A DNA stretch of 24,000 bases. Origin: Aquibacillus sediminis (GTDB taxonomy: Bacteria > Bacillota > Bacilli > Bacillales > Amphibacillaceae). This document shows, piece by piece, positions 3,885 to 18,860 of the stretch. The notes under the pieces are model-generated. The model did no database searches and had not been told where the DNA came from. It was given only the letters and a program-made list of their open reading frames with translations. The DNA is taken from contig NZ_SZNM01000009.1 of assembly GCF_005870085.1 (NCBI RefSeq), positions 18,616-42,615 of the forward strand, given 5' to 3'. The translations under genes and the position numbers were made by a program. Within the stretch, counting starts at the first letter, position 1. The number at the start of each line of letters is the position of its first letter.

Positions 3885-3902
3885 CTATCATTCACCTTTC
3901 AT

Positions 3903-4057
3903 ATAAAGTGAAACTTCCACTCAGTGGTTTGTTTGCTCTTCCCCACTGAGTGGAAGTTAAACCAATCGGGGTGTTAGCATCCGTTTTACTCCCACTTAAA
4001 CATCTTCGTTTTACTTCATGTTTTGAAGTGGGAGTTTTACGGACGGTTGCACCGGGA
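3903..4057. repeat. C-family 155-bp structured repeat, copy 1
   Basis: About 80 percent identical by eye to 9460-9615. It has a perfect 16-bp hairpin (3912-3927 with 3943-3958) and a 10-bp hairpin (3988-3997 with 4026-4035), and ends in GACGGTTGCACCGGGA. Confidence 0.85.
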
Positions 4058-4064
4058 TAAATAA

Positions 4065-4100
4065 GGAAGCACCGGGACGGTTCATGTGCTTCCTTTTCTC
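4065..4100. repeat. B-family hairpin (reverse orientation) with a T-run on the plus strand
   Basis: GGAAGCAC-CGGGACGGTTCAT-GTGCTTCC followed by TTTTCTC. The loop holds the reverse complement of the family core GAACCGTCCC. Confidence 0.7.
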
Positions 4101-4179
4101 GGCAAGAGTTTATGCTTCCACTTTCAGAAGCGCTTAATGCGCGGGATCTGTTCCCCGTTTCCTATATTTTTTATTTTAC

Positions 4180-4218
4180 AACAAAAATAGAAGCAGGAGA
4201 ACCGTCTCCCCTGCTTCC
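4180..4218 (-). terminator. B-family hairpin, intrinsic terminator of the YjiH-like gene
   Basis: The minus strand reads GGAAGCAGGGGAGACGGTTCTCCTGCTTC followed by TATTTTTGTTG. It lies 46 nt downstream of the stop at 4264. Confidence 0.7.
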
Positions 4219-4232
4219 ACCCTCAATAGTGA

Positions 4233-4263
4233 GTGGGACAAGTGCCCTGTCCCCGTGTCCCAC
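4233..4263 (+). repeat. A-family 31-bp element
   Basis: GTGGGACAAGTGCCCTGTCCCCGTGTCCCAC. It is flush (0-nt gap) with the stop codon TAA at 4264-4266 of the minus-strand gene. Confidence 0.9.
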
Positions 4264-5655
4264 TTAAAAGAATAATAGATGGGCCATTAGTGCTGCAACT
4301 GGTAGGGTAATGATCGTTCTTTGTAAGAAGATGATAAATAGTTGCACAAATGATACCGGAATTTTTGACTTGATTAATAAAATTCCAATTTCGGACATGT
4401 AGATTAACTGTGACAAGGACATCACACCGATCACAAAACGTGTCAGTTCTGATTCGATGCCACTACCAACGACAGCTGGTAAGAACATGTCCGCAAAACC
4501 AACTAGCATCGCGGGAGCAGCTGCCTCTGCCTCAGGAATTTGCAACAATTGTAGTAATGGTACAATCGGATAGGATAAATAATTGAAAATTGGTGTGAAC
4601 TCCGCAATCACAAGTGCAATCGTACCTAGCGCCATCACAAGTGGAATTAATGAAAACCAAATATCCACCACATTTTGCACACCACTTTTTACGACACTTT
4701 TGTAACTCTTTACCTGATCTGCTTTTTCAACAGCCTTTTGAACGCCCCACTGAAAACTAGACACACCTTCAGGGACCTCTTCATTAATTTGCTTTCCGAC
4801 CGGTTCATAATACGAGTCTTTTTTCCACGAAAGTGGCGGAATTCTTGGGCAAATAATCGCCGCAATCACCCCTGTGACAATTACAGTGAAATAAAACTGA
4901 ACAAACATATGATCAATATTTAAAAAACGTGCAATCACAAGACTGAAAGCAATTGATGCAATTGAAAAATTCGTCGCAACCACGGACGCTTCACGCTTCG
5001 TATAGTAACCAGCTTCATATTGTTGTGTCGTTAACAACACCCCAACCGTTCCACTTCCCATCCATGATGCGAATGCATCAATCGAAGAACGTCCAGGTAA
5101 TTGAAATAAAGGTTGCATGACTTTACGTACTAATGTTCCGATAAAATCCATTAAGCCAAATTGAAGTAACAACGGCATAAATAAACAAGCAAATAAAAAC
5201 CAAACCATTAACACTGGAATTAAATCATATAGCACAACGCCACCTGTTAAACCTGACCAAACCAATTCAGGACCGATTTCCGTCAATGTAAAAGTTGCAA
5301 ATAAAGCACCAATACAACGTAGCACTAACCAGAATGGCGTGATATCAAATAAACCACTTAAAAATGTATTTTGTTGCACAACGGATAGATTTGTCGCTTT
5401 AACTAGTAAACTACCAACTGCTGATAGGCATAACACAATCGTCATAAATAATGGAATATAATCCGCAATCGCAGCTTGTAGACCATCTGCTAAAATTCCC
5501 AGTCCGATCGTTACTGTACCATCGACAGAAATGGGAACTAAAAATAGCAGAACCCCAATCAATGATGGCACGATAAAGTTTAAATACTTCTTCGTTGAAA
5601 TCTCCTGTTCTTTCGTTGTCATTGCTTCTGCTTGTTGTACTTTTTCCATCCCCAT
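4264..5655 (-). CDS. YjiH-like nucleoside-recognition (Gate) domain membrane protein
   Basis: 463 aa and polytopic. The N-terminus ...KYLNFIVPSLIGVLLFLVPISVDG and overall layout resemble Firmicute YjiH-family proteins. The family assignment is from memory, not a search. Confidence 0.65.
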   Translation of the reverse strand: MGMEKVQQAEAMTTKEQEISTKKYLNFIVPSLIGVLLFLVPISVDGTVTIGLGILADGLQAAIADYIPLFMTIVLCLSAVGSLLVKATNLSVVQQNTFLSGLFDITPFWLVLRCIGALFATFTLTEIGPELVWSGLTGGVVLYDLIPVLMVWFLFACLFMPLLLQFGLMDFIGTLVRKVMQPLFQLPGRSSIDAFASWMGSGTVGVLLTTQQYEAGYYTKREASVVATNFSIASIAFSLVIARFLNIDHMFVQFYFTVIVTGVIAAIICPRIPPLSWKKDSYYEPVGKQINEEVPEGVSSFQWGVQKAVEKADQVKSYKSVVKSGVQNVVDIWFSLIPLVMALGTIALVIAEFTPIFNYLSYPIVPLLQLLQIPEAEAAAPAMLVGFADMFLPAVVGSGIESELTRFVIGVMSLSQLIYMSEIGILLIKSKIPVSFVQLFIIFLQRTIITLPVAALMAHLLFF

Positions 5656-5729
5656 TTATTTCTCCCCCAATTGTATATCTATTCGTTTGAATAACTGTAT
5701 AAATAGCTCCGTTTCTCTTGATAGTTAAT

Positions 5730-5759
5730 AATATACCACTAATATGAATAAATATGCAA
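5730..5759 (-). promoter_or_regulatory. Putative sigma-A promoter of the YjiH-like gene
   Basis: On the minus strand TTGCAT (5759-5754), an 18-nt spacer, then TGGTATATT with an extended -10 (5738-5730). This leaves a leader of about 65 nt. Confidence 0.4.
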
Positions 5760-6074
5760 TACCCTTTTATTATTTTTTATAAAAAAATATCCTCTCAATT
5801 TATAAATAGAAGCAAAGAAAGCATTTTTAACACTGACGCAAACACAAAAAGTTACGTTTAGTCCGTGAAAACCGTTTCATTTCAACTATGTATAAATATA
5901 CCACAACCAGAATATTCGACTCACAATGGATAAAGCTCCCACACATCCTATAAACATTAGTGGAATTTTGTATCTTAGTTGACGGAAACTATGAGTATAC
6001 GTGCTCTCTCGGTTGATTCAGAACAGTCTATCGTGCGATTCTACCGAAAGATGCTTAACAACAGTATTTTGCCC

Positions 6075-6109
6075 CAAAAAAGAAGCACAGGAAAAATCCC
6101 TGCGCTTCT
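6075..6109 (-). terminator. Intrinsic terminator of the esterase/BVMO operon (B-like hairpin)
   Basis: The minus strand reads AGAAGCGCAGGGATTTTTCCTGTGCTTCT followed by TTTTTTGGGG. It lies 16 nt downstream of the stop at 6125. Confidence 0.75.
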
Positions 6110-6124
6110 CAGCTAGAAATCTAT

Positions 6125-7054
6125 TTATTTTGTTAAAGCCCTTCTTAACGCAGTTGCTGCTTGAGTAATTGCTTGATCCCCTTTTTCCATCGCAGCAGGC
6201 ATCCAAAAGTAACCATGAATCATGCCGTCATAACGACAGGCTTCAACGGGGACTCCTGCTTGGTTCAAGCGTTCAGCATAGGCTTCTCCCTCATCGCGTA
6301 ACGGATCATATTCACCCGTGAGGACGAGTGCTGGTGGAAGTCCACTAAGATCATCGGCAAGCATTGGTGAAGCATAGGGGCTCTGACCGTCAGAAGCATC
6401 GCGTAAATAATGATCCCAAAACCACACCATACTATCCTTTGTTAAAAAGTACCCATCCGCATTATCACGATAAGAATCTGTTTCAAAATTATGGTTGGTA
6501 ACTGGATAAATTAATAGTTGATAGGCAATATCTGGGCCACCTTTGTCGCGAGCCATTAAGGAAACAACTGCTGCGAGGTTGCCTCCCGCACTATCCCCAC
6601 CAACAGCAACACGCTCCTGGTCGACATTTAGTGAAGCAGCTTTGTCAGCAACCCACTTTGTTGCAGCATAACAATCCTCTGCTGCTGCAGGATATTTATG
6701 CTCCGGAGCAAGTCGGTAATCGACAGACACAACTACACATTCTGCTCGATTGGCGAGTAACCGACAAGGCACATCGACCGTATCTAAATCACCGACCACC
6801 CAGCCACCACCATGGTAATAAACCAAGGCTGGAAACGGGCCCTCTCCTTTTGGGGTATAGATACGTATTGGGATATCACCCGCTGGACCTGGAACCGTTC
6901 GATTTTCTACTTTTCCAACCGCTTCTGGTTCTCCCGCTAACGGACCCATATCAATCGATGCACGCGCTTCTTCAGGGGAAAGTTCACTCATCGGTGGCTC
7001 CCCTGCCTCTTCCAATTGATCTAATATAAATTTTGCTTGTGGATCTAACGTCAT
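6125..7054 (-). CDS. Alpha/beta hydrolase, hormone-sensitive-lipase family esterase
   Basis: It has the HGGGW oxyanion motif (VYYHGGGWVVGD), the GDSAGG nucleophile elbow, and C-terminal DPLRDEG and HGY. AAGGAGGAAG SD. Confidence 0.9.
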   Translation of the reverse strand: MTLDPQAKFILDQLEEAGEPPMSELSPEEARASIDMGPLAGEPEAVGKVENRTVPGPAGDIPIRIYTPKGEGPFPALVYYHGGGWVVGDLDTVDVPCRLLANRAECVVVSVDYRLAPEHKYPAAAEDCYAATKWVADKAASLNVDQERVAVGGDSAGGNLAAVVSLMARDKGGPDIAYQLLIYPVTNHNFETDSYRDNADGYFLTKDSMVWFWDHYLRDASDGQSPYASPMLADDLSGLPPALVLTGEYDPLRDEGEAYAERLNQAGVPVEACRYDGMIHGYFWMPAAMEKGDQAITQAATALRRALTK

Positions 7055-7108
7055 ACCACATCTTCCTCCTTGTCAGTAGATTATATATTAAGAAAATTTC
7101 CTTGATAA

Positions 7109-8713
7109 CTAAGTTAATGAAAACCCTTCGTACCCTTTGGCCGCGACATCATCACAAATTTGACGATAAGGCCCAACGCCTCCAAGATAAATTTGGAAGC
7201 CTCTTGGTTTGCCTTCAATATTTGCCCCCATGTACCATGAATCTGTTTTGGTAAATAATGTCGCTTCTGCTACTTCACGACAATGGCTACTCCAGTCATC
7301 TTCTGCTTCTACGTTAGCCTCAATCGTTTGGGCGCCATTTTTTTCCATATACTCAATACATTCCGAAATCCACTCGACATGTTGCTCAATCGATACCATC
7401 ATATTACTTAACACGGATGGACTTTCTGGGCCAGTGATCATAAACATATTTGGAAAACCTGTTGTAGCAAGACCGAGATACGTCTTTAACTGCGCCCCGT
7501 CATCCCACTTTTCTTGTAAGGAGACGCCATCTTTGCCTCGAATATCCATTTTAAACAGTGGACCTGTCATCGCATCAAAACCGGTCGCAAATACGATCAT
7601 ATCTAGCTCATACTCTTTTTCTGTAGTGCGAATGCCAGTTGAGGTAATTTCCTCAATTGGGGCATTTTTCACACTAACCAACGAGACATTGTCACGGTTA
7701 TATGTTTCAAAATAATCCGTATCAATAATCGGCCGTTTGGTCGCATAATAGAAATCTGGCATTAATTTCGCTGCTACCTCAGGATCTTTCACAATCTCAC
7801 GTATTTTTGAACGGATAAAACTAGCAAGCGTTTCATTCGCTTCTGCATTCACATTGATATCATTGTACGTATAGGATAAATTCATTAATCCACCTTTTTC
7901 CCAAGCAGCTTCAAACACACGCTGCCGTTCTTCAGGGGAATCATCTAGTGCAGAACGGTCTCTCGGAGCACCAGGCATACCCGTTAGAGAGTAGCGCATT
8001 TCTTCTTTAACCTCATCAAAATTTTCTCTTATCTGCTTCAATCTGTCTGGATCATATGGCTTATTATGTGCAGGGGTACTATATTGTGGTGTTCGTTGAA
8101 AAACAGTCAGGTGTTTTGCTTCCTTCGCAATGGCGGGAATGGACTGAATACCGCTGGAACCAGTGCCAATTACCCCAACATGCTTTCCTTCAAAATCAAC
8201 TTTTTCATGTGGCCATCGACCGGTATGGTACCATTCGCCTTCAAAGTTTTCTAAACCTTTAAAATGGGGGACATTCGATGCAGACAGGCACCCTACTGCG
8301 GTAATAAAATACTTAGCTGAGACAGGAGTGCCCTCGTCGGTTGTTATGTTCCAACGATTGGTTGCTTCATCATAATGAGCACTTTCTATGCGGGTGTTAA
8401 ATTGAATGTCACGCCGGAGATCTAATTTATCGGCAACGAAGTTTATATAACGAAGAATCTCCGGTTGTTCTGCATATCTAGCAGACCAAGTCCATTCATT
8501 AAGAATTTCTACCGAGAAGGTATAATTATAGAAAACACTTTCAACATCACAACGAGCTCCTGGATAACGATTCCAATACCAAGTGCCACCAACATCATCA
8601 GCCAATTCATACACACGAGTGGAATAACCTGCTTCACGTAGACGATGAAGCATATACAACCCCGAAAAACCAGCCCCAACGACGACAACATCATAATTTT
8701 GTCCAGTTGTCAT
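7109..8713 (-). CDS. Type I Baeyer-Villiger monooxygenase (cyclohexanone monooxygenase-like flavoprotein)
   Basis: It has GAGFSGL (FAD Rossmann), the BVMO fingerprint FEGEWYHTGRWP (FxGxxxHxxxWP) and GTGSSG (NADPH Rossmann). GGAGGAGGGG SD. Confidence 0.9.
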   Translation of the reverse strand: MTTGQNYDVVVVGAGFSGLYMLHRLREAGYSTRVYELADDVGGTWYWNRYPGARCDVESVFYNYTFSVEILNEWTWSARYAEQPEILRYINFVADKLDLRRDIQFNTRIESAHYDEATNRWNITTDEGTPVSAKYFITAVGCLSASNVPHFKGLENFEGEWYHTGRWPHEKVDFEGKHVGVIGTGSSGIQSIPAIAKEAKHLTVFQRTPQYSTPAHNKPYDPDRLKQIRENFDEVKEEMRYSLTGMPGAPRDRSALDDSPEERQRVFEAAWEKGGLMNLSYTYNDINVNAEANETLASFIRSKIREIVKDPEVAAKLMPDFYYATKRPIIDTDYFETYNRDNVSLVSVKNAPIEEITSTGIRTTEKEYELDMIVFATGFDAMTGPLFKMDIRGKDGVSLQEKWDDGAQLKTYLGLATTGFPNMFMITGPESPSVLSNMMVSIEQHVEWISECIEYMEKNGAQTIEANVEAEDDWSSHCREVAEATLFTKTDSWYMGANIEGKPRGFQIYLGGVGPYRQICDDVAAKGYEGFSLT

Positions 8714-8886
8714 TCTGTTTGCCCCTCCTCCTCATGGATCATTTTACAAACTTCACCCATTCACTAGATGTTAGCACCACTAATTGGAATCGTTTTCAAA
8801 AAATGAGAAAGGAATACAAGTATCATAAGTGTGCCCTTACTCCAACATATGGCATTATTTATTTGAATATTCCAAATTTTTAATTA

Positions 8887-8917
8887 GTGGGACATGGGGA
8901 CAGGGCACTTGTCCCAG
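8887..8917 (-). repeat. A-family element, reverse orientation
   Basis: GTGGGACATGGGGACAGGGCACTTGTCCCAG is the reverse complement of the consensus with one terminal change. It lies 174 nt upstream of the BVMO start. Confidence 0.9.
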
Positions 8918-8972
8918 TTGGAGGGTACACATACCTTCCTAATGATGACAGCCATAGCATCCTTCCTACTTC

Positions 8973-9008
8973 AAAAAAGCCGGGGAACTGTACGTCCCCT
9001 GGCTTTTT
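8973..9008 (-). terminator. Bidirectional-looking intrinsic terminator downstream of the 98-aa ORF
   Basis: AAAAAAGCCGGGGAACTGTACGTCCCCTGGCTTTTT has an A-run and a T-run flanking a GC stem. It lies 8 nt downstream of the stop at 9016. Confidence 0.75.
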
Positions 9009-9015
9009 AAAAGTT

Positions 9016-9312
9016 TTATTCTTCTTTTAATTCTTTTCTATATTTCTTAATTAATAAATCAACGACATCTAAGTTATTGTCAATAAACGTTAATCTTTCA
9101 CGAGCAGTTTTGCTCCAATCAAAATGCAAGTCAGTCGCTGTAAAAATATGACGAAGTCCGAAAGAATATAAGTGATGTAATTGGCTAACTATAAAACTAC
9201 TACCAACATCTCTTCCTTTCTTTTCAAATACCTCCTTGATATCATCTTTTAACCAATCAGGGGCCACCTCGACCGCTTTATTTGCTAGTACTTGATACTC
9301 CCTATATGTCAT
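9016..9312 (-). CDS. Hypothetical 98-aa protein
   Basis: It has a strong SD (GGGGGAG 8 nt upstream), its own terminator and a possible TATAAT promoter. I recognise no motif. Confidence 0.6.
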   Translation of the reverse strand: MTYREYQVLANKAVEVAPDWLKDDIKEVFEKKGRDVGSSFIVSQLHHLYSFGLRHIFTATDLHFDWSKTARERLTFIDNNLDVVDLLIKKYRKELKEE

Positions 9313-9375
9313 AATCTTTTCTCCCCCTTCTAAATAACGAAGCGCAGGGGCGTTTCTTACACTCCTTCACTAAAG

Positions 9376-9403
9376 GAAGCAGGAGAACCGTCCCCCTTGC
9401 TTC
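9376..9403. repeat. B-family hairpin
   Basis: GAAGCAGGAGAACCGTCCCCCTTGCTTC is near-identical to 4190-4217. It lies in the 5' leader region of the 98-aa ORF. Confidence 0.85.
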
Positions 9404-9404
9404 G

Positions 9405-9433
9405 ATTATACTATGAATTCTTTTTAAATTAAA
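9405..9433 (-). promoter_or_regulatory. Possible promoter of the 98-aa ORF
   Basis: The minus strand has a perfect TATAAT (9410-9405), a 17-nt spacer and a weak -35 TTTAAT (9433-9428). Confidence 0.3.
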
Positions 9434-9459
9434 AGAGATATTTGAACTTTCGCAATTTA

Positions 9460-9615
9460 ATAAAGTGAAACTTCAATCAGTGAGGATTTTTGCCCTTCCC
9501 CTACTGATTGTTAGTTGAACGAATCGGGGTGAAAGCGAAAGTTTACTCTCACTTAAACTTCTTCAGTTTTCCTTCATATTTCGAAGTGGGAGTCTTACGG
9601 ACGGTTGCACCGGGA
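9460..9615. repeat. C-family 155-bp structured repeat, copy 2
   Basis: It aligns end to end with 3903-4057. The first hairpin is retained through paired changes (CAATCAGT 9474-9481 with ACTGATTG 9503-9510). The same GACGGTTGCACCGGGA tail lies at 9600-9615. Confidence 0.85.
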
Positions 9616-9758
9616 AAAAGTGTTGACGTTCTATCATTCTACAATAACGCTCGCTAGATCATGAACAACTATCTTTTTATAGCGCCTGACACTGGCATCG
9701 AAGCTTAATAAAACCGCTAAAGTCAACTCCCACTAACGTTAATTAAATAAAACTTAAT

Positions 9759-9787
9759 TTGAAGAAAGATTAGGAAGAACTTATACT
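9759..9787 (+). promoter_or_regulatory. Putative sigma-A promoter of the nuclease operon
   Basis: TTGAAG (9759-9764), exactly 17 nt, then TATACT (9782-9787). The predicted transcript would carry the A element 9840-9870 in its 5' UTR. Confidence 0.4.
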
Positions 9788-9839
9788 ATTACTAAATTTC
9801 ATGCCATAAAATGTTAACCCCTACTAATCTATCCCCATA

Positions 9840-9870
9840 CTGGGACAAATGCCCTATCCCCATGTCCCAT
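9840..9870 (+). repeat. A-family element (diverged) abutting the SD of the nuclease gene
   Basis: CTGGGACAAATGCCCTATCCCCATGTCCCAT is followed immediately by TAAAGGAG, then ATG at 9888. Confidence 0.85.
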
Positions 9871-9887
9871 TAAAGGAGTTAAAGCTA

Positions 9888-10724
9888 ATGCAAATAGATG
9901 AATATAAATTTAAAGGTGTCATATCTTCTATCAGCAATCAGGTTAGGGGAGAATTATTTTCTCAAAGCAATCAGCACATACATTTTATACAAACATTAAT
10001 AAAGGAAGGCGTTCCTACTCCTGTTTTATCGGTTTGCGGAAAAGGAACACAGGAAATTCGATTCACGAAATATTTTGCTTATTATCTTGACGAAAAAAAA
10101 TTTCACGGTTTGGTCTCTGAATGTTTAAAAGCAGCTTTTGATCAAGAGGCTATAGCGGCCGGACTTCTAGATGATTGGTACCAGGGGTGTGATGTTTTTT
10201 CTGAATATAACCTGGGGAAGATCACTGGTTACGACCTTAATAACTATATCGATATCTTGATCAAAGGGGACGACTTTGTTGTTTGTGTGGAACAAAAGTT
10301 ACTAAGTGGGGAGAGCAATACAAATGAGACAAATCTTGGGCAGTTAGAACGGTATAGTCTCGCATTAACCCAAAATGAAGAGTTTAAAGACGTACAAGTT
10401 ATTAAAATTTATTTAACACCAAACGAGTCGATCCCTACCAGCTCAACTGATTGGATTGCTATGTCCCATGAAAAACTTGTAAAACGATTAATCCCTCTTA
10501 TCTCCAATGAAAAACTATCATCGACAGCGGTCGAAAATGTTAAGCGCCTGTTGCTTGATTTTATCCTTGGACCCTATGAATCTACTGATCAAGTTATCTA
10601 CAATTTGTATGAACGAGCTCAACAGGTGGTTCGGAGTGGGTATGCAGTTAGTAAAACACAAGCATTTATTGACTTGCTCCAAAAACATCATCTGCTCTTG
10701 CAAATTCTTAGAGGAGGAAAATAG
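9888..10724 (+). CDS. PD-(D/E)XK (RecB-like) nuclease-fold protein, uncharacterized family
   Basis: Ordered motifs are FSEYNLG (E), YIDILIKGDDFVVCVEQK (D..ExK) and GQLERY (QxxxY), followed by IKIYLTP. This layout is typical of uncharacterized PDDEXK families. I trimmed the start to the ATG at 9888 (AAAGGAG SD), because the track start at 9849 lies inside a repeat. Confidence 0.7.
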   Translation: MQIDEYKFKGVISSISNQVRGELFSQSNQHIHFIQTLIKEGVPTPVLSVCGKGTQEIRFTKYFAYYLDEKKFHGLVSECLKAAFDQEAIAAGLLDDWYQGCDVFSEYNLGKITGYDLNNYIDILIKGDDFVVCVEQKLLSGESNTNETNLGQLERYSLALTQNEEFKDVQVIKIYLTPNESIPTSSTDWIAMSHEKLVKRLIPLISNEKLSSTAVENVKRLLLDFILGPYESTDQVIYNLYERAQQVVRSGYAVSKTQAFIDLLQKHHLLLQILRGGK

Positions 10725-10726
10725 GA

Positions 10727-11287
10727 ATGAATCATTTATCGGGATCTGGAAAATTGTATCTAAAAGAATACTATGCCTTGAAATACGCTGAAAACACAGT
10801 AAATACATTTCTTGACAATTTACTAAATGATACCTATCAATACATTGTTGCGCGCCTACCAAAAAACGTAAATCATTATAGCTGGAGTGCCAATCAAGCC
10901 AAGCAAGGGAGAATGGAATTGTATCCTCATTTCTCTAGTAACCATGGGATATTTGCGGGCGATAAAGTTGAACTATCTGTTCTTTATCGAGATGTTCGTG
11001 ATTATGATCATATGGAAAAAACAGCGAGCATTCGATTGTCTATATACTGCCGCAAAGGATTAAAGGCAAGGTTTGGTGACATCCCACAAGCAGTACTACA
11101 AAATGCTTGTGAATCAGCAGAACAACACGGGATTACCATTCAGATAGAAAAAGGCCAACCATTATATTGCGAATACATCGATGTGAACCTTGATGACGTT
11201 GAAGAAACGATTCGAGAGGTTGGAGAAGCGATGATACGGATTGGAAAAGGGGTGGATGCATTTGTAGATGGGGTTTTAGTAGGGTAG
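10727..11287 (+). CDS. Hypothetical 186-aa protein, translationally coupled to the nuclease gene
   Basis: The ATG is 2 nt after the upstream TAG, and a GGAGGA SD lies inside the upstream gene's 3' end. I recognise no motif. Confidence 0.65.
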   Translation: MNHLSGSGKLYLKEYYALKYAENTVNTFLDNLLNDTYQYIVARLPKNVNHYSWSANQAKQGRMELYPHFSSNHGIFAGDKVELSVLYRDVRDYDHMEKTASIRLSIYCRKGLKARFGDIPQAVLQNACESAEQHGITIQIEKGQPLYCEYIDVNLDDVEETIREVGEAMIRIGKGVDAFVDGVLVG

Positions 11288-11290
11288 GCA

Positions 11291-11317
11291 GAAGCAGCGG
11301 GTCGGTCCTTGTGCTTC
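11291..11317. repeat. B-family element (reverse, diverged) just after the plus-strand operon
   Basis: GAAGCAGCGGGTCGGTCCTTGTGCTTC, whose reverse complement is GAAGCACAAGGACCGACCCGCTGCTTC. Only 6 bp of terminal stem remain and there is no T-run, so it is a weak terminator at best. Confidence 0.6.
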
Positions 11318-11443
11318 CTAATTCATGTACACCAACGCCTACGCCTCATGATTCAGACTGGTTTTAGGCACTAGCTCCCCGCGCCCCCATTTGTAAAAGG
11401 CATCCAAATTTATCCATTGCAAATGGACAAACCAACTACAAAC

Positions 11444-11471
11444 GGCGCTGGTCATGATCATTACCAGCGCC
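11444..11471 (-). terminator. Hairpin downstream of the man operon
   Basis: GGCGCTGGT pairs with ACCAGCGCC (9-bp stem, 10-nt loop). On the minus strand it is followed by GTTTGTAG, a poor U-run. Confidence 0.35.
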
Positions 11472-11475
11472 CCTA

Positions 11476-11499
11476 GTGGGACAAGTGTCCATGTCCCAC
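11476..11499 (+). repeat. A-family short (24-bp) variant
   Basis: GTGGGACAAGTGTCCATGTCCCAC is flush (0-nt gap) with the stop TGA at 11500-11502 of the SIS gene. Confidence 0.85.
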
Positions 11500-12498
11500 T
11501 CACTCTCTATTTGTAACTTTACGAATAATAGACGCTTCTCCTGCTACTAAGCCTTTTTTCTCGGATAAGCGAACGGCTGCTATTTGAGTAACGCTTGAAT
11601 AGATAATCGGACTGACGAATTCACTGACAGATTTCATCGTAATTGATGTCACATTGTCGTGTTCGAGAGGTTCATCTGATACATATACAACTTTCCCGCC
11701 GTAATCCGCTATCTCTTTTGCCATTTCTAAATTATGCTCGTAGGTCTTCCCATAAGGATTAAATAAAATACATTGAAACGGTTCACGTAACAGTTCGTAA
11801 GGTCCGTGTCTAAATTGTGCAGAGGACAGGGATTCCGTGTAAATTCGAGCCGTTTCTTTTAACGTTAACCCTCCCTGTTCTGCCGTTGTGACACTTGGCC
11901 CGCGTCCAAGCAGTACTAATGGTTGGTTCGGATTGATCGTGTCTACGAGCTTATCGCCAATCGCAGCAAACTGATTTTCCAACACATCACCTAACACATC
12001 TGCAGCGACGAGTAAATCCGATTCCAACGATTCTCCATATTCCTTTGAAAATAACTGCAACAATAACGCTACCGTTGTGGTGAAGGATTTCGAAGATGCG
12101 ATTGCTTTTTCTTGTGTCGCTTTCGTGTAGTAAACATTGGCAGAACCTGTTGTGATTGAACTACCTGGTGTATTGGTAATAGCAGATACATGATGGGTCT
12201 TCTCTAGTAGTTGCTTCACTTCAAAGCTTTCCCCACTTTGCGAACTAATCAATAGGTTATAATGGTTTAACATTGGTGACTGATAATGAAGCAATTCCGA
12301 ACAATCAATCGCTTGAGCCATCCCACCATTGCTAGTCACATATAAAGCCGCCAATTGGGAAGCAGCTAACGAACTACCCATACCAGTAAGCAAAAACGGC
12401 TTGTTTTTATCAAAATTAAAAGTAGTATCGATATTTCCATTAACTGTGTCTTTTATCGACTGTGGTTGCTCATGTACTTCAGTTAAAAATAAACTCAT
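11500..12498 (-). CDS. SIS-domain sugar-phosphate isomerase/deglycase (GlmS C-terminal / FrlB / AgaS-like)
   Basis: 332 aa with two SIS-like halves (LLTGMGSSLAASQ..., ISSQSGES, VLLGRGPS). It is the last gene of the man cluster. Confidence 0.75.
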   Translation of the reverse strand: MSLFLTEVHEQPQSIKDTVNGNIDTTFNFDKNKPFLLTGMGSSLAASQLAALYVTSNGGMAQAIDCSELLHYQSPMLNHYNLLISSQSGESFEVKQLLEKTHHVSAITNTPGSSITTGSANVYYTKATQEKAIASSKSFTTTVALLLQLFSKEYGESLESDLLVAADVLGDVLENQFAAIGDKLVDTINPNQPLVLLGRGPSVTTAEQGGLTLKETARIYTESLSSAQFRHGPYELLREPFQCILFNPYGKTYEHNLEMAKEIADYGGKVVYVSDEPLEHDNVTSITMKSVSEFVSPIIYSSVTQIAAVRLSEKKGLVAGEASIIRKVTNRE

Positions 12499-12562
12499 AT
12501 GCGATCATCCCTTCACAGATTTATAATTATGTACGTTTATAAGAACAGCCGCCCCTTAGTAA

Positions 12563-12589
12563 GAAGCACAAGAACCGTCCCGCCGCTTC
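12563..12589. repeat. B-family element (diverged)
   Basis: GAAGCACAAGAACCGTCCCGCCGCTTC lies between manA and the SIS gene. Confidence 0.7.
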
Positions 12590-12641
12590 CTTATTAGGAA
12601 CTGTGCGAAACCCTCCTTGTACATTCATGCGGGAATATCAA

Positions 12642-12672
12642 GTGGGACAAGTGCCCTGTCCCCATGTCCCAC
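12642..12672 (+). repeat. A-family 31-bp element
   Basis: GTGGGACAAGTGCCCTGTCCCCATGTCCCAC. Its last base is shared with the manA stop codon TAG (12672-12674). Confidence 0.9.
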
Positions 12673-13628
12673 TACACGTGTGATACGATCAATTCTGCTT
12701 TTCCTGTTAATTGATAGTTGCGAACGCCATTTGGCAAAATAAAATGGCTTCCTTTTTCAATTTCAAATGACTGATCCTCGACAGTAATGGTTGCATTTCC
12801 GTCTATAACACTAACTTGCAAGAAGTCTTGCTCTAACGTCAATGATGCACTGCCCTCAAGTTCCCAATGATAAACAGAGAAATACTCCGCTTCTACCAAC
12901 TGCTTCACCGTTAAGTCCTCTACTTTCGATACACTTTGCTCTCCTACTGCATCTTTGTGTGGCACAGTCGTAACTTCCATTGCTTTTTCTAAGTGTAGTT
13001 CACGTTTGTTCCCTTCCGCATCGGTTCGATCATAATCATAGACGCGATATGTAATATCTGAACTTTGTTGGGTTTCTAAAATGACAATCCCTTTTCCAAT
13101 CGCATGAATCGTCCCACTCGGAACATAGACAAAATCACCAGCTTGCACTTTGATCCGACCTAAAAATTGATCCCACTCACCATTTTCTACCATCGTTTTT
13201 AATTCTTGGTCGGATTTTGCATGGTGACCAATCACGAGTTCCGCTTCAGGCTCTGCACTTAGGACATACCAGCACTCGGTCTTCCCATATGGCGCCCCTT
13301 CCACTTCACGCGCATAGGTATCATTCGGATGCACTTGGACAGATAAGTCATCATTCGCATCTAAAATTTTAACAAGCAATGGGTATTCCTCGTCATTATC
13401 CTTGCTTTTATGAAATAACTCTCCATGTTCGTTCCATGCATCTGCTAGTGTTTTGCCAGCTAGAGGTCCATTGGTTATGATACTTGGCCCATTAGGATGG
13501 GCAGAAATCACCCACGCTTCCCCTGTTTGTGCAGATGGAATCTCATAGTTAAATTCTGTTTGTAATTTTTGACCGCCCCAAATACGCTCTTGAAATACAG
13601 GCTGTAAAAAAATCGGCTCTTTGTACAT
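12672..13628 (-). CDS. manA: Mannose-6-phosphate isomerase, class I (Bacillus type)
   Basis: The N-terminus MYKEPIFLQPVFQERIWGG, then QVHPND and GTIHAIG cupin metal motifs. It lies directly downstream of the PTS gene, as in B. subtilis manP-manA. Confidence 0.9.
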   Translation of the reverse strand: MYKEPIFLQPVFQERIWGGQKLQTEFNYEIPSAQTGEAWVISAHPNGPSIITNGPLAGKTLADAWNEHGELFHKSKDNDEEYPLLVKILDANDDLSVQVHPNDTYAREVEGAPYGKTECWYVLSAEPEAELVIGHHAKSDQELKTMVENGEWDQFLGRIKVQAGDFVYVPSGTIHAIGKGIVILETQQSSDITYRVYDYDRTDAEGNKRELHLEKAMEVTTVPHKDAVGEQSVSKVEDLTVKQLVEAEYFSVYHWELEGSASLTLEQDFLQVSVIDGNATITVEDQSFEIEKGSHFILPNGVRNYQLTGKAELIVSHV

Positions 13629-13680
13629 AAATAGTTACCTCCAATATTAAGTTGATTGATCCAAATTTATAATGTAAAGA

Positions 13681-13705
13681 AAGCATGAGCCCCGTCCCCA
13701 TGCTT
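13681..13705 (-). other. Intercistronic hairpin between manP and manA
   Basis: The minus strand reads AAGCATGGGGACGGGGCTCATGCTT followed by TCTTT. The stem is about 7 bp. It could be a partial terminator or a processing site. Confidence 0.35.
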
Positions 13706-13713
13706 TCCCCCTG

Positions 13714-15660
13714 TTACTGTACTTCTTCTAATAAGGTTAGTGCTTCTTGTTTTGAGTTTGTTTGTAGTAATTTTTCTCTAAATTGTTCGTCCATTAATTT
13801 TCTTGATAGCATTTGTAAAATTTTCAAGTGTGCATCTCCAGCACTTTCCTCTGGTACGGCAATCATGAAAATTAATTTGGCGTCAGTGCCATCAAGACTG
13901 TTCCAATCAACACCATCACGCTTGATTCCAAATGCTACGGCAGGGCGTGTGACTGCATTTGACTTTCCATGTGGAATCGCAATGTTCATGCCAAGTCCTG
14001 TAGAACTTTGTGCTTCACGATCCAGAATCGCTTGTTTAAATGTTTGTTTCGAGTCAACAATACCAGCTGCATCAAATTTCTCAATTAATTCATCGATCAC
14101 ATCATCACGTGTTGATGCAGTTAAGCTTGTCTCAATTAAGTCTTCACTCGTAATATCAACTAATTTATTAATTTCTTGAGTTGCAGGCTCTGTAGTCGCC
14201 GTTTGGGATGTTGTTGCTACTTCATCCGTCGCATCAACTTGAACCGTTCCACCCCCAGCGACAGCTACTTCTACATCTTTTTTCAAAAAGTTTACCATAA
14301 ATGCTGTCACGATTACACCAGCAATTGCTGCTAGGAAAAAGACAATTACGTTGTCCACTGCACCTAGTATCGCAACAATTGGTCCACCGTGTGCTACTTT
14401 GTCCCCAACATTCCCAATCATCGCAATAATCGAACCAGTCATCGAACCGACAACAATACTTGGAATAACGCGCAATGGATCCTGTGCGGCAAATGGAATC
14501 GCCCCTTCTGTAATGCCAAAAAATCCCATCGTTAGAGAAGCTTTACCTGCTTCGCGTTCATTTGCTTGATATTTTTTCTTATTAATCAATGTTGCAAGTC
14601 CCATTCCAATTGGTGGAATACAGATCGCAACCGCAATCGGTCCCATAATTTCATAGTTTCCTTCTGCAATCATCGCAGAACCAAATAGGAATGCAACTTT
14701 ATTAAATGGTCCACCCATATCAACGGCAATCATCGCACCAAGAATCGCCGCTAATAAAATCGAGCTTGCGCCTTGCATACCGGCAAGCAATGTCGTTAGC
14801 CCTTCAAACACTTGTGCTACAGGTGCACCGATTACAAAGATAAATAATAGTCCTACAATCACCGATGAAATAATCGGAATAAAAATAATCGGCATAACCG
14901 GTTGCACGGCTTGTGGAACTTTAATTTTCTTAATCCAAAGTGCAATATAACCAGCTAAGAAACCAGCGATAATCCCGCCGATAAATCCAGCTCCAGCTTC
15001 ACTTCCATAAAAACTACCCTCTGCTGCAATATAACCACCGATCATACCTGGTACTAAACCTGGACGATCCGCAATACTAACGGCAATGAAACCTGCTAAA
15101 ATTGGTACCATGAACATAAATGCTGTTCCACCTAAGGTTTCAATTTGTTTCCAAATCGAATCCTCTGGTATTTGAATGCCACCTGGTGTTTGCTCCCCAC
15201 CAATCGTTAATGCAAGCGCGATCAACAGTCCCCCAACAACGATAAATGGAATCATGTAAGAAACACCATTCATCAAGTGTTTATAAATAGGGTTTTCTTT
15301 TTGTTTCTTTTGTTGCTTAACTTCGTCTGGGGATTTTAAGTCTCCTTGGTGAACGGACGCGTCCCCGTTTTGAATTCGTTTGATTAATTCTTTCGGATTA
15401 CGAATGCCCTCTTGGACACCGGTTACAATTAATTTTTTACCAACAAACCGTTCTTTCGAAATTTCTTTGTCAGCAGCGATAATAATTCCATCTGCCTCTG
15501 CAATGTCTTGGTCTGTTAGCACATTTTCCGCACCAATTGAACCTTGTGTTTCAACTTTTATATCAATGCCCATCTCTTCGCCTGCTTTTTGTAAGTTCTC
15601 AGCAGCCATATACGTATGGGCAATCCCAACTGGACAAGCCGTCACAGCTAATACCTTCAT
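13714..15660 (-). CDS. manP: PTS mannose/fructose-family transporter, EIIBCA
   Basis: 648 aa. It has an N-terminal EIIB(Fru) domain (KVLAVTACPVGIAHTYMAAE), a polytopic EIIC and a C-terminal EIIA (GMNIAIPHGK). Domain order and neighbours match B. subtilis ManP. Confidence 0.9.
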   Translation of the reverse strand: MKVLAVTACPVGIAHTYMAAENLQKAGEEMGIDIKVETQGSIGAENVLTDQDIAEADGIIIAADKEISKERFVGKKLIVTGVQEGIRNPKELIKRIQNGDASVHQGDLKSPDEVKQQKKQKENPIYKHLMNGVSYMIPFIVVGGLLIALALTIGGEQTPGGIQIPEDSIWKQIETLGGTAFMFMVPILAGFIAVSIADRPGLVPGMIGGYIAAEGSFYGSEAGAGFIGGIIAGFLAGYIALWIKKIKVPQAVQPVMPIIFIPIISSVIVGLLFIFVIGAPVAQVFEGLTTLLAGMQGASSILLAAILGAMIAVDMGGPFNKVAFLFGSAMIAEGNYEIMGPIAVAICIPPIGMGLATLINKKKYQANEREAGKASLTMGFFGITEGAIPFAAQDPLRVIPSIVVGSMTGSIIAMIGNVGDKVAHGGPIVAILGAVDNVIVFFLAAIAGVIVTAFMVNFLKKDVEVAVAGGGTVQVDATDEVATTSQTATTEPATQEINKLVDITSEDLIETSLTASTRDDVIDELIEKFDAAGIVDSKQTFKQAILDREAQSSTGLGMNIAIPHGKSNAVTRPAVAFGIKRDGVDWNSLDGTDAKLIFMIAVPEESAGDAHLKILQMLSRKLMDEQFREKLLQTNSKQEALTLLEEVQ

Positions 15661-15706
15661 GATGTTTCCCTCCTATAATAACCTCGTTTTGTAATTGCTT
15701 ACATGT

Positions 15707-15766
15707 ATTGTAACGCTGAAAACGGCCTTCATTAATTTAAGTTTTTACCGTAATATGTGGTAAAAA
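15707..15766 (-). promoter_or_regulatory. Putative activator-dependent manP promoter with upstream palindrome
   Basis: The minus strand has -10 TACAAT (15712-15707), a weak -35 TTAATG (15735-15730) and the palindrome TTTTTACC-N9-GGTAAAAA (15742-15766), centred about 50 bp upstream of the expected TSS. The palindrome is a candidate ManR site. Confidence 0.35.
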
Positions 15767-16110
15767 TGAATTAATTGGTTGTGGGATAGCTTTCACCTTG
15801 ATTCTGAAGGCCTTCAATATGGAGTGGGACGTTGCTGGGGTATGGGAGGGTGGGGAAAGTGCGGGATTGCGATTCGGATGCGGAATTGCGGACATTTATT
15901 CCGCTATTCACTCAATTTCATGCCTTTTTCATCCAATTCCGACGGTTTAAAGAACCAATGTCCGCTCCATGCCATTTTGGGCACTTTTTTCACCATTTAA
16001 GGCACTAAATGTCCGCCTCCACCCTCTATTCGAAGCGGACATTTGTTTCACAATTCACGCTGGTATTCATGCCCCCCGCGAACCCCGTCATACCAACCCT
16101 ACTTACTACA

Positions 16111-18039
16111 TCATGATAGGTTATCCAAAAAATCTTTCACACGGTCAGCTGCAACTAATGACTGCACATAGGACGGATGCTCACAAATCGTCGCGATCTG
16201 TGAAACCGCAGCTCGATTTAAGCGTTGATCCTCCTTAGAAAAAGCTAACATAAACACTAGCGAAACAAACTCTGTCCCCCATTCGATTGGTTCCTTCAAA
16301 ACAGCAACCGCAATGGCGGATTGATGAACCATCGATGGGCTACCATGCGGAATGGCGACACCCCCACCAATGGAAGTAGCTGATTTGCTTTCTCTCATTA
16401 TTGCATGATGAGTGAAAGACTCCGTAACGAAACCCTTTTGAAAAAGTGCCTGTCCTAACAGTTCCACCACTTGGTAAGGGTGTTCCTTGTCTACTCCTAA
16501 AAAAACTAAGTCGCCTCGGATCAAAGGAGCAAGCTGTGCCGCATCCTGGCTCCCTGCTTTCTTCTGCTCCAATTGTTTCATGAATTGGTTTAAATTCTCT
16601 TTATCCTTTGCTTCTAATAATGGCGAGATCACAACATGGGGAACATGGATACGGTCAAGTGGCACCGTCGAAATAATAAAATCCACTGCCGTTTTTTCAA
16701 GAAAATCATCCACATCTCCTTGCCCAACACAAGCCAAGATCGTAATATCTTGGTAGTACTGTTTGACTTTTGCCTCCAAAAGATAGGACGTGCCGACCCC
16801 CATGTGACAAACAATTAACGTTTTCTTCTCCTGTTCACGTGTTCCTTCTAGCCGTTCAATTGCAGCTTGGAAATGAAGCACGAGATAGGCGGCCTCATCC
16901 TCTGGAACGTCCAGATCATATTTTTCTCTAATTTCATCTAGCGCGATCATCACCATGTTAAACATATATGGATACATTTTCTTCACATCTGCTAAAAGTG
17001 GATTAGTGATAGGAAAGCCATATTTGATTCGATTAATGACCGAATGAATATGAACCGCTAAGCCTCTAGTTAACACAGCATCACTTTCAAACGAGGTTAA
17101 CGTTAATTTACTTAGCTTTGTCGTTAAATCTGCAACTAAATTATTTAAAAAATCATCTGCGATCGTTGCGAGCGCCGCCTCATCTTCTTTCTTCTTGCCA
17201 CTAATTAAATGCCAGGTAAAATAGATTCGTTCATCTTCTGGGAAGGTGATACGAAAGACGGATTCTAGTTGTTCAAAAAACGTAGAGGTCATATTGTATT
17301 CTTTATAACCGCACACCGCCTCTTTTTCCTCTTCTGGAACATAAACGGGTGACTTTTGCCTTGTTCGTTTGATCATAATTAACGCATGGACGAGCAAACT
17401 TTCCATTGCCCCATCTGTAAAAGCAATCGCATGGTGTTGTTGCAAGTCACGCAATGCCTTTTTCACTGTTGTGATTTCATAGGGAAGAAATAAGTCGAGC
17501 ACATAATTTTTTTCCAATGCAAGTGTTGGAAGCAATTCAGAAAGGTGAGCGATCGCACTCCGCTTATTAAATTCTGTCCCTTCCACATAGTTTCCAAGAC
17601 GTGGTTTGGAAATGAGTTCAAGATCAAACCCATTTAACCATGTCGCAATTTGGTCCAGTTCCTTCTTGATCGTACCCTTGGCAACATAGTAATGTTTCGT
17701 CAAATCTTGAATCGTAACCGCTTTATCACTAACCAATAAGTGATAAGCAATTTCTAAAAATCGATCCTCGGTCGTTTTTGGCTCGGTAGCTAGCAGTCGA
17801 TCAAACATAGCCGCTCGATCAGCCTCACCCACCTCTAGCATAATCCCAATTCCAGGTTTGCGAATCAGCGTTGCACTAGGAAAATCTACTAGAATCTCTT
17901 CTAGTTTCTTCAAATCATTCCGCACCGTTTTCTCCGCACATTCCAATTGACTAGCCAAACTCATTATGTTGACGGTTTCTTTTTTCTGCACTAATAAGAT
18001 TCGTAATAATTCCTTCTGTCTATCATTCATAGTCCGCAC
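16111..18039 (-). CDS. manR: PRD-domain PTS-controlled transcriptional activator (ManR/MtlR/LicR type)
   Basis: 642 aa with N-terminal HTH/Mga-like domains, two PRDs, an EIIB(Gat)-like domain (LIVCHMGVGTS) and a C-terminal EIIA(Mtl/Fru)-like domain (GGGVAIPHG). It sits upstream of manP. Confidence 0.9.
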   Translation of the reverse strand: MRTMNDRQKELLRILLVQKKETVNIMSLASQLECAEKTVRNDLKKLEEILVDFPSATLIRKPGIGIMLEVGEADRAAMFDRLLATEPKTTEDRFLEIAYHLLVSDKAVTIQDLTKHYYVAKGTIKKELDQIATWLNGFDLELISKPRLGNYVEGTEFNKRSAIAHLSELLPTLALEKNYVLDLFLPYEITTVKKALRDLQQHHAIAFTDGAMESLLVHALIMIKRTRQKSPVYVPEEEKEAVCGYKEYNMTSTFFEQLESVFRITFPEDERIYFTWHLISGKKKEDEAALATIADDFLNNLVADLTTKLSKLTLTSFESDAVLTRGLAVHIHSVINRIKYGFPITNPLLADVKKMYPYMFNMVMIALDEIREKYDLDVPEDEAAYLVLHFQAAIERLEGTREQEKKTLIVCHMGVGTSYLLEAKVKQYYQDITILACVGQGDVDDFLEKTAVDFIISTVPLDRIHVPHVVISPLLEAKDKENLNQFMKQLEQKKAGSQDAAQLAPLIRGDLVFLGVDKEHPYQVVELLGQALFQKGFVTESFTHHAIMRESKSATSIGGGVAIPHGSPSMVHQSAIAVAVLKEPIEWGTEFVSLVFMLAFSKEDQRLNRAAVSQIATICEHPSYVQSLVAADRVKDFLDNLS

Positions 18040-18060
18040 CTACTTTAATTAATACCAAAA

Positions 18061-18089
18061 AGTGTATCTTATTAGTAGGAAAAATTCAA
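18061..18089 (-). promoter_or_regulatory. Putative manR promoter
   Basis: The minus strand has TTGAAT (18089-18084), 17 nt, then TACACT (18066-18061). It directly abuts A element 18093-18123. Confidence 0.35.
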
Positions 18090-18092
18090 CGT

Positions 18093-18123
18093 GTGGGACA
18101 AGGGGACAGGTTTACTGTCCCAG
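18093..18123 (-). repeat. A-family element, reverse orientation, diverged
   Basis: GTGGGACAAGGGGACAGGTTTACTGTCCCAG forms an inverted pair with 18221-18252. Confidence 0.8.
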
Positions 18124-18155
18124 AAAGAAGCAGCGAGGACGTGGGGAATCTCGCA

Positions 18156-18171
18156 GACGGTTGCACCGGGA
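18156..18171. repeat. C-family tail fragment
   Basis: GACGGTTGCACCGGGA is identical to 4042-4057 and 9600-9615. It is preceded by the B-like fragment GAAGCAGCGAGGACG. Confidence 0.7.
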
Positions 18172-18220
18172 TCAAGACAAACGTCCAACATCACACCATA
18201 TCTATAGGCGTGCTCCACAA

Positions 18221-18252
18221 GTGGGGACAAGTGCCCTGTCCCCATGTCCCAC
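18221..18252 (+). repeat. A-family element (one extra G)
   Basis: GTGGGGACAAGTGCCCTGTCCCCATGTCCCAC ends 1 nt before the stop TGA at 18254-18256. Confidence 0.9.
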
Positions 18253-18253
18253 T

Positions 18254-18847: not shown

Positions 18848-18860
18848 TTTCTATCCCCCC

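Follow-up and report, generated by a model that had tools for sequence, protein, structure and literature searches.

A two-gene cassette of a PD-(D/E)XK nuclease and a fast-evolving partner protein in Aquibacillus sediminis: a candidate anti-phage or addiction module

Introduction

What is the role of a predicted nuclease whose gene is directly followed, in genome after genome, by a small gene of no recognised family? This question is raised by a cassette of ~1.4 kb in Aquibacillus sediminis (contig NZ_SZNM01000009.1, positions 18,616 to 42,615). We refer to this whole stretch of 24,000 nucleotides as the window, and coordinates without a locus name are positions within it. The cassette consists of two open reading frames (ORFs): ORF1 encodes the nuclease, and ORF2 encodes the partner. 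An initial annotation, made from the sequence alone, had described the pair as a RecB-like nuclease coupled to a protein of unassigned family and had proposed a candidate defence or toxin system. We followed up this proposal by profile searches, structure prediction and comparison of related loci. The cassette looks like a candidate anti-phage or addiction module and unlike a housekeeping pair.

Results

Gene starts and coupling

According to the ORF list, ORF1 occupies 9888-10724 on the plus strand (278 aa plus stop), and ORF2 occupies 10727-11287 on the same strand (186 aa plus stop). The open frame of ORF1 runs from an ATG at 9849. No Shine-Dalgarno (SD) sequence precedes that codon, which falls within a copy of a repeat dispersed in the host DNA. 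The ATG at 9888 does have one, AAAGGAG (9872-9878, plus strand), 9 nt ahead of it, and is the start of both the catalogued 278-aa protein P0001 and the closest homologue. The start at 9888 is therefore correct, and the gene coordinates of the initial annotation are upheld. ORF1 stops at TAG 10722-10724, and the ATG of ORF2 at 10727 lies 2 nt beyond this stop. The SD sequence of ORF2, GGAGG (10713-10717, plus strand), is embedded in the last codons of ORF1, confirming the coupling that had been described. The two genes make up a self-contained operon with coupled translation, which is passed between genomes as one unit.

ORF1 is a predicted PD-(D/E)XK nuclease with an invariant active site

ORF1 matched the Pfam family PF14281 (PDDEXK_4) with E = 1.3e-9 and 38.7 bits, against a gathering cut-off of 22.3 bits. 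The match covered profile positions 4-181 of 183 and residues 47-225 of the 278-aa protein. Outside this domain are ~46 aa at the N-terminus, forming one long helix, and ~53 aa at the C-terminus, also helical; the initial annotation had left ~100 and ~120 aa unassigned, respectively, and both estimates were too large. PF14281 was precomputed for 31 of the 36 ORF1 homologues. NCBIfam and PHROGs gave no match to ORF1.

The nuclease alignment comprised 24 homologues (29-65% identity). The ordered motifs on which the initial annotation was built were invariant in all 24: E106 (in FSEYNLG), D122-I123 (IDILI), E135 and K137 (EQK), and Q152, L153 and Y156 (QLERY). Judged by the Pfam match and this alignment, the nuclease motifs are real and beyond chance. 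The most conserved block lies further towards the N-terminus, where G41, P43, P45, G51, G53, E56, R58, Y62, Y65, H73 and G74 were likewise invariant; on the evidence of the alignment, this G41-H73-G74 block belongs to the nuclease domain. The label 'RecB-like' needs correcting: the QxxxY motif does follow the ExK strand, with Q152 and Y156 invariant, but the resemblance is confined to this motif. No PDDEXK_1 (RecB/Cas4-type) or Cas4 model of Pfam matched ORF1 at E ≤ 1, and a search of PDB sequences with the ORF1 family profile retrieved no solved chain, including those of RecB, AddB and Cas4.

The AlphaFold 2 (AF2) model of ORF1 had a mean predicted local distance difference test score (pLDDT) of 88.4 and showed an alpha-beta-beta-beta-alpha-beta core, preceded by a long N-terminal helix and followed by a bundle of C-terminal helices. 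The core elements were a helix at 78-90, strands at 102-111, 118-126 and 130-136, a helix at 152-162 and a strand at 170-177. When the model was compared with the PDB by Foldseek, the leading matches were PD-(D/E)XK nucleases, all of them weak (best E = 2e-3): Nt.BspD6I, the R2 endonuclease domain, AF1548, MspJI, HamA, McrC, Cdn1, Bax1, LmuA and HincII. Four of these weak neighbours (HamA, McrC, LmuA and Cdn1) are defence effectors. With a score above the gathering cut-off, the D...(D/E)xK signature and the core fold all present, ORF1 is a member of PF14281 and of the PD-(D/E)XK nucleases, and it is predicted to be a metal-dependent phosphodiesterase with an intact, invariant active site.

The N-terminal region differs among family members. 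Distant nuclease homologues (P0008-P0034) carry one to four tandem helical segments of ~20 aa, with the pattern L-x3-I-x2-I-(K/R), ahead of the core (alignment A1, columns 1-100), and the window nuclease retains just the last of these, FKGVISSISNQV. This variation in copy number suggests that the segments may serve as a coiled-coil or spacer element.

ORF2 belongs to an uncharacterised family with a conserved helix and a variable half

ORF2 could not be assigned to any family in Pfam, NCBIfam, PHROGs or PADLOC. Sixteen partner family members scanned one by one gave scattered chance matches only, among them a weak CopG_antitoxin match in one homologue (E = 0.05), and a sequence-profile search of the PDB with the partner found nothing. 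The searches of Pfam and PADLOC hidden Markov models (HMMs) that the initial annotation had recommended gave PF14281 and the PADLOC candidate family PDC-S26 for the nuclease and no family for the partner.

A word-indexed search with ORF2 alone returned one homologue only, in Bacillus shivajii. The genes downstream of nuclease homologues, once translated, proved to be clear ORF2 relatives, and a profile search of 1.84 billion representative proteins recovered 90 partner clusters, all of them stand-alone. After these local HMM searches of related loci and the exhaustive profile search, the idea that the partner is a near-unique protein was dropped. The 90 representatives were ~165-200 aa long with a single exception of 334 aa, and none was a nuclease-partner fusion. 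Nor did the partner prove to be a degenerate nuclease paralogue: hhalign gave a probability of 0.2% for the two. The long exception belongs to Salisediminibacterium beveridgei (locus L002, 8842-9846) and consists of the usual ~190-aa domain followed by a ~145-aa C-terminal extension, which had no PADLOC match. A SNF2-family helicase and a 1520-aa protein are encoded upstream in that locus.

The AF2 model of the partner (pLDDT 89.7) began with a helix of 38 residues and ended with another long helix; between them lay a beta-sheet and two short helices. No significant fold match was found: the best PDB matches were type III secretion system (T3SS) chaperones (E = 0.16), and the best BFVD matches were uncharacterised viral proteins (E = 3e-3, template modelling score <0.5). 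Among 74 full-length members, conservation was limited to the N-terminal helix (Y11, L12, Y15, L18 and L29), G61 and a Y87-x-D89-x-R91 loop in which D89 was invariant, and the C-terminal half was highly variable. The family is mildly acidic, with a median isoelectric point (pI) of 5.3.

The two genes occur together and diverge together

We collected 16 related loci, 3 from exact-protein look-ups and 13 from a scan of one genome per species. A partner homologue lay immediately downstream of the nuclease gene in 15 of the 15 loci extending past the nuclease. In the opposite direction, a metagenome scan was seeded with a closer subset of partner sequences, the full partner alignment having no stretch conserved enough for this use. 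It yielded 8 loci, and the nuclease gene was directly upstream in all 6 that had upstream DNA, one of which was a duplicate contig. Altogether, the two genes were adjacent in 20 of 20 independent testable loci, whichever gene was used as the seed. This is the outcome that the initial annotation had set as a test of the pair. The gap between the two genes ranged from -20 to +9 nt in the 16 loci.

Nothing else was shared. All-vs-all BLAST of the neighbouring ORFs identified the nuclease and the partner as the only genes common across loci; the flanks differed everywhere, and no third conserved gene was found. When the window was compared with the B. shivajii DNA, homology spanned exactly 9873-11282 at 70% identity and ended at both ends of the operon, and there was no conserved DNA upstream of the nuclease gene. 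The pairwise identities of nuclease and partner were correlated (r = 0.91). In 96% of comparisons the partner had diverged further than the nuclease, and the mean identities were 25% and 37%, respectively. ORF2 is an obligate genomic partner of ORF1, co-diverging with it and evolving faster.

Two loci contained traces of additional copies. In the B. shivajii locus (L001, 6569-6697), the intact cassette is preceded at ~1.3 kb by a 43-codon remnant of the C-terminal end of the partner, which shares 70% identity with the complete copy and suggests a decayed second copy or a past rearrangement. In locus L023 (2291-2518), a complete pair is followed after ~1 kb, where the contig ends, by a weak second match to the N-terminal part of the nuclease profile (E = 1e-4), which may represent a tandem second cassette.

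The cassette is rare and sporadically distributed

Very few members of the family are known: the nuclease forms 36 clusters and the partner 90. Besides A. sediminis, the cassette was found in the Bacillaceae B. shivajii and S. beveridgei; in Tissierellia, Syntrophomonadaceae, Clostridiaceae, Christensenellales, Coriobacteriia and another actinobacterial metagenome-assembled genome (MAG); and in a Chloroflexota MAG, a Victivallales MAG and a contig binned as Muribaculaceae, the last few hosts (e.g. these three) being subject to the caveat of MAG binning. It is thus sporadic over at least four phyla, with Bacillota, Actinomycetota and Chloroflexota among them. No relatives of the cassette were found in IMG/VR contigs or GenBank phages, and the plasmid search gave a single match, a distant archaeal 428-aa single-gene relative on a Halosegnis plasmid. 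Exactly two genes are inherited horizontally and patchily.

Relation to known systems

Nine HMMs of PDC-S26 in PADLOC matched ORF1, the best with E = 1.6e-18. The PDC systems are 145 candidates obtained by 'guilt by embedding', in which PDC-S26 is listed as a single-gene system (Payne et al., bioRxiv 10.1101/2024.01.29.577857); the sole other literature mention of PDC-S26 that we found concerns its occurrence in pipolins. PF14281 was described as 'function unknown' in a survey of the superfamily (Steczkiewicz et al. 2012, PMC3424549). The PDC-S26 models describe single proteins of 350-415 positions, whereas ORF1 has 278 aa and an obligate separate partner, and the partner did not match these models. 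Compared with PF14281 at large, the ORF1 subfamily has three additions: helical repeats at the N-terminus, a bundle of helices at the C-terminus and a partner gene of its own. As far as the sequences go, the window system is a relative of PDC-S26 that fails its full-length single-gene architecture and is best described as a two-gene variant.

The archaeal relative was examined as a reference for the single-gene form. It lies on the Halosegnis marinus plasmid NZ_CP119803.1 (locus L017, 5920-7206), where the 428-aa PDDEXK_4/PDC-S26-type nuclease is encoded beside a type I-B CRISPR-Cas operon; at a distance of 5 kb begins a second gene, annotated 'PD-(D/E)XK nuclease family protein'. The 428-aa protein matched PDC-S26 with E = 2e-23 over positions 35-266 of 400, a fuller match than that of ORF1. 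Its similarity to the ORF1 family profile (hhalign probability 97%) was confined to the nuclease core. We asked whether the partner could be the detached C-terminal half of a PDC-S26 protein. The hhalign comparison of the partner profile with the Halosegnis protein, whose C-terminal half was the part in question, detected no similarity and, together with the lack of fusions among the 90 representatives, left this idea unsupported.

We also compared the cassette with established two-component systems. Hachiman (HamA-HamB) and Lamassu (LmuA-LmuB/C) likewise encode a PD-(D/E)XK-type effector nuclease beside a controlling partner, and HamA (8zue) and LmuA (9ux7) are among the weak fold neighbours of ORF1, with non-significant Foldseek E values (0.03-0.2). 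The ORF2 product, however, has 186 aa and contains neither a helicase nor an SMC/ABC ATPase domain, and PADLOC reported no sequence similarity to the HamA, HamB or Lmu models; the comparison concerns a possible mode of action and not membership. The colicin-E/Im and barnase-barstar layouts resemble the cassette in gene order, tight coupling and a partner that evolves faster than the enzyme. They differ from it in that there is no homology and no secretion or translocation domain, and in that the ORF2 product is larger and of alpha/beta type with long terminal helices. In type II toxin-antitoxin systems, a small DNA-binding antitoxin is usually encoded upstream; here, the partner is downstream, has 186 aa and has no significant Pfam match. 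Restriction-modification systems carry a cognate methyltransferase in the same locus, and none was found among the window neighbours scanned.

Discussion

A model for the function of the cassette

We infer that the partner binds and controls the nuclease, because the predicted active site is invariant, the linkage of the two genes is obligate, they are translationally coupled and co-diverge, the partner combines a conserved helix with a variable half, and the inheritance is that of two genes distributed patchily. The likeliest reading is that the cassette is a two-component anti-phage module, of abortive-infection or restriction-like type, in which a nuclease effector is controlled by its partner; we consider this proposal about evenly poised between right and wrong. 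In such a module, the conserved N-terminal helix of the partner would dock onto the nuclease, probably at one of the long helices near the N- or C-terminus of the latter, and the partner would hold the nuclease inactive or untargeted. The variable half of the partner would sense a sign of infection (e.g. a phage protein or nucleic acid in an abnormal state) or would set specificity. The cue would license DNA cutting by the nuclease, and phage replication would be stopped or the infected cell killed.

A narrower version of this model is put forward tentatively, as we expect it to fail somewhat more readily than to hold. It takes the cassette for a previously undescribed two-component immune system, in which the diversifying partner, with its unclassified alpha/beta and faintly T3SS-chaperone-like fold, would be the infection sensor that licenses the PDDEXK_4 nuclease via a conserved helix-helix interface. 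If true, this would provide a first function for PF14281 and for the PDC-S26 candidates.

Several observations weigh against an anti-phage role. The PDC-S26 match of ORF1 is confined to the nuclease core, at profile positions 35-191 of 397, and no functional study of PDC-S26 or of PF14281 (PDDEXK_4) came up in a literature search. The Pfam, NCBIfam, PHROG, PADLOC, PDB and fold searches revealed no sensor, ATPase or DNA-binding domain in the partner. The order of a nuclease followed by a fast-evolving small protein equally fits a toxin-immunity pair. The neighbours of the cassette in the window are metabolic, and clear defence genes stood beside the cassette in 3 of the 16 related loci (L012, L007 and L009), a count for which there is no background rate for comparison. 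Twenty further neighbours scanned individually were essentially negative for defence.

The defence association is present but weak. We scanned 135 neighbouring proteins of the related loci with PADLOC models. The clearest defence-island context was that of L012 (Actinobacteria bacterium UBA2279, 6126-9675), where the cassette is directly preceded by genes for a 578-aa GajA/AriA/OLD-like (Gabija-type) ATPase and a type II methyltransferase of 542 aa; an XhoI-type restriction enzyme matched among the pooled neighbours was attributed to this locus by size only. Type I HsdR was found near the cassette in L007 and L009. TmtA, PDC-S11, HEC-09 and NsnB each had a single PADLOC match that we were unable to place in a particular locus; matches to mad3 and mad8 fell on ABC-transporter-like proteins and are probably not defence genes. 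The neighbours of the related loci were otherwise mostly metabolic. The initial annotation had suggested looking for enrichment beside defence genes; clear defence genes were seen in these three loci, and the remaining loci of the 16 had none. Its broader proposal of a candidate defence or toxin system is partly supported. In its favour are the PDC-S26 match and the outcome of its three own tests, namely that the pair recurs elsewhere, the catalytic residues are conserved in the homologues, and no homologue sits in a repair or housekeeping context. The few defence neighbours, the restriction of the PDC-S26 match to the core and the metabolic genes in the window count on the other side.

Alternative explanations

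The main rival is a toxin-immunity or addiction module, in which the nuclease would be a DNA-damaging toxin and the partner its stoichiometric inhibitor, and which would persist selfishly or stabilise an island without a dedicated anti-phage role. We regard it as doubtful, and as deserving serious attention all the same. Nuclease-immunity pairs classically have this layout, with the nuclease gene first and a small, faster-evolving protein tightly coupled behind it. The partner is also mildly acidic, there is no consistent defence neighbourhood, with the cassette alone among metabolic genes in the window, and the decayed partner fragment in B. shivajii is of the kind that occurs with addiction modules. 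However, at ~175 aa the partner is large for an antitoxin, Pfam detected no helix-turn-helix (HTH) or ribbon-helix-helix domain in it, and its gene is downstream, unlike the upstream position typical of type II systems. Addiction modules are usually enriched on both plasmids and phages, but the cassette was absent from the phages and plasmids searched, bar the distant archaeal single-gene plasmid relative. Moreover, an addiction module and abortive-infection defence overlap, and the one is compatible with the other. A restriction-like endonuclease of two different subunits, such as a modification-dependent (type IV-like) enzyme that cuts foreign DNA directly without abortive infection, appears improbable. 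It would make the partner a DNA-recognition or specificity subunit, which agrees with a nuclease that has no separate DNA-recognition domain and with a variable half that could carry specificity. The weak fold neighbours of the nuclease include Nt.BspD6I with its small subunit, MspJI, McrC and HincII, and type IV logic needs no methyltransferase. Against it, the partner has no known DNA-binding or modified-base-reading fold (SRA, winged HTH or YTH), its top fold matches being T3SS-chaperone-like and non-significant, and an adjacent methyltransferase was found in L012 only.

The two remaining explanations are far less probable. A housekeeping nuclease of DNA repair, recombination or processing with an accessory subunit is strongly disfavoured. 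The window neighbours are ordinary chromosomal genes, and PD-(D/E)XK nucleases with a QxxxY motif include repair enzymes; yet the extreme rarity of the family (36 nuclease and 90 partner clusters in billions of proteins), its patchy distribution across phyla, the lack of conserved synteny with repair or replication genes across the loci and a G+C content below that of the flanks speak for something else. The initial annotation had already noted the absence of a housekeeping context, and the changing flanks of the homologues bear this out. A secreted polymorphic toxin with its immunity protein, serving interbacterial competition, would share the toxin-then-immunity order and the fast-evolving downstream protein, and is scarcely credible for a short, stand-alone nuclease whose N-terminus is a single helix or simple helical repeats. 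No secretion-system family was among the ten commonest Pfam families of the 135 neighbours, and Pfam matched no signal peptide and no LXG, WXG or Rhs trafficking domain in the nuclease.

If the cassette protects against phage, a candidate family would be validated and a new kind of small sensor or regulator of nucleases would be added; if it is a toxin-immunity pair, it would represent a new PD-(D/E)XK toxin family. The finding is incremental: cassettes that pair a nuclease with a partner have often been seen before, and our results agree with current understanding. PD-(D/E)XK nuclease-based candidate defence or toxin modules are already known, and what is new is the two-gene variant with an unclassified partner family. 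The cassette is small and comes from a Bacillus-like genome, so that cloning and testing it would be easy.

Surroundings of the cassette in the window

The cassette lies on the strand opposite to its neighbours, which encode an alpha/beta-hydrolase (esterase), a flavin monooxygenase, a SIS protein, a mannose-6-phosphate isomerase, a phosphotransferase system EIIABC protein and a PRD regulator. No methyltransferase was found among the window neighbours scanned (2703-8713 and 11500-20303), and among the 16 related loci one was nearby in L012 alone. The G+C content of the cassette region (0.35-0.38) is slightly lower than that of the flanks (0.41-0.44). A consensus scan gave weak evidence of a possible sigma-70-type promoter, TTGAAG-17-TATACT, at 9759-9787 on the plus strand, ~100 nt upstream of the nuclease start; it agrees with 9 of 12 consensus positions, and the number of such sites in the region was not above that in shuffled sequences. 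A search for a small upstream ORF before the nuclease gene found chance-sized ORFs only, and an Rfam scan of 8600-11600 gave no match.

Between the monooxygenase gene and the cassette is an orphan 98-aa ORF (9016-9312, minus strand), flanked by inverted copies of a 31-nt repeat and followed by a terminator-like hairpin at 8982-8999. It had no family in Pfam, NCBIfam, PADLOC or PHROGs and no counterpart in the related loci.

The repeat, GTGGGACATGGGGACAGGGCACTTGTCCCAG, is ~31 nt long and forms an imperfect palindrome (TGGGACA...TGTCCCA). At least nine copies are present in the 24 kb, with 0 expected in shuffles: 2679-2700, 4233-4263, 8887-8917, 9840-9870, 11477-11498, 12642-12672, 18094-18122, 18222-18252 and 21088-21118. 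Most are found where genes end or close by. The cassette is bracketed by two copies of like orientation, of which that at 11477-11498 folds as a 9-bp hairpin. We considered the flanking inverted and direct repeats as marks of a mobile element and rejected this idea: the repeat is scattered over the entire window and was missing from each of the 16 related loci, which marks it as part of the host genome, an element like the repetitive extragenic palindromes or bacterial interspersed mosaic elements (REP/BIME-like).

A second hairpin-type repeat, GGAAGCA...TGCTTCC, occurs at 4065-4093, 9375-9410 and 11291-11318, the last copy directly after the partner stop. At the cassette, no T-run follows it. 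The B. shivajii locus (L001) has a cluster of five similar copies at ~11030-13888, so that these Bacillaceae may have an intergenic hairpin or terminator-like element in common.

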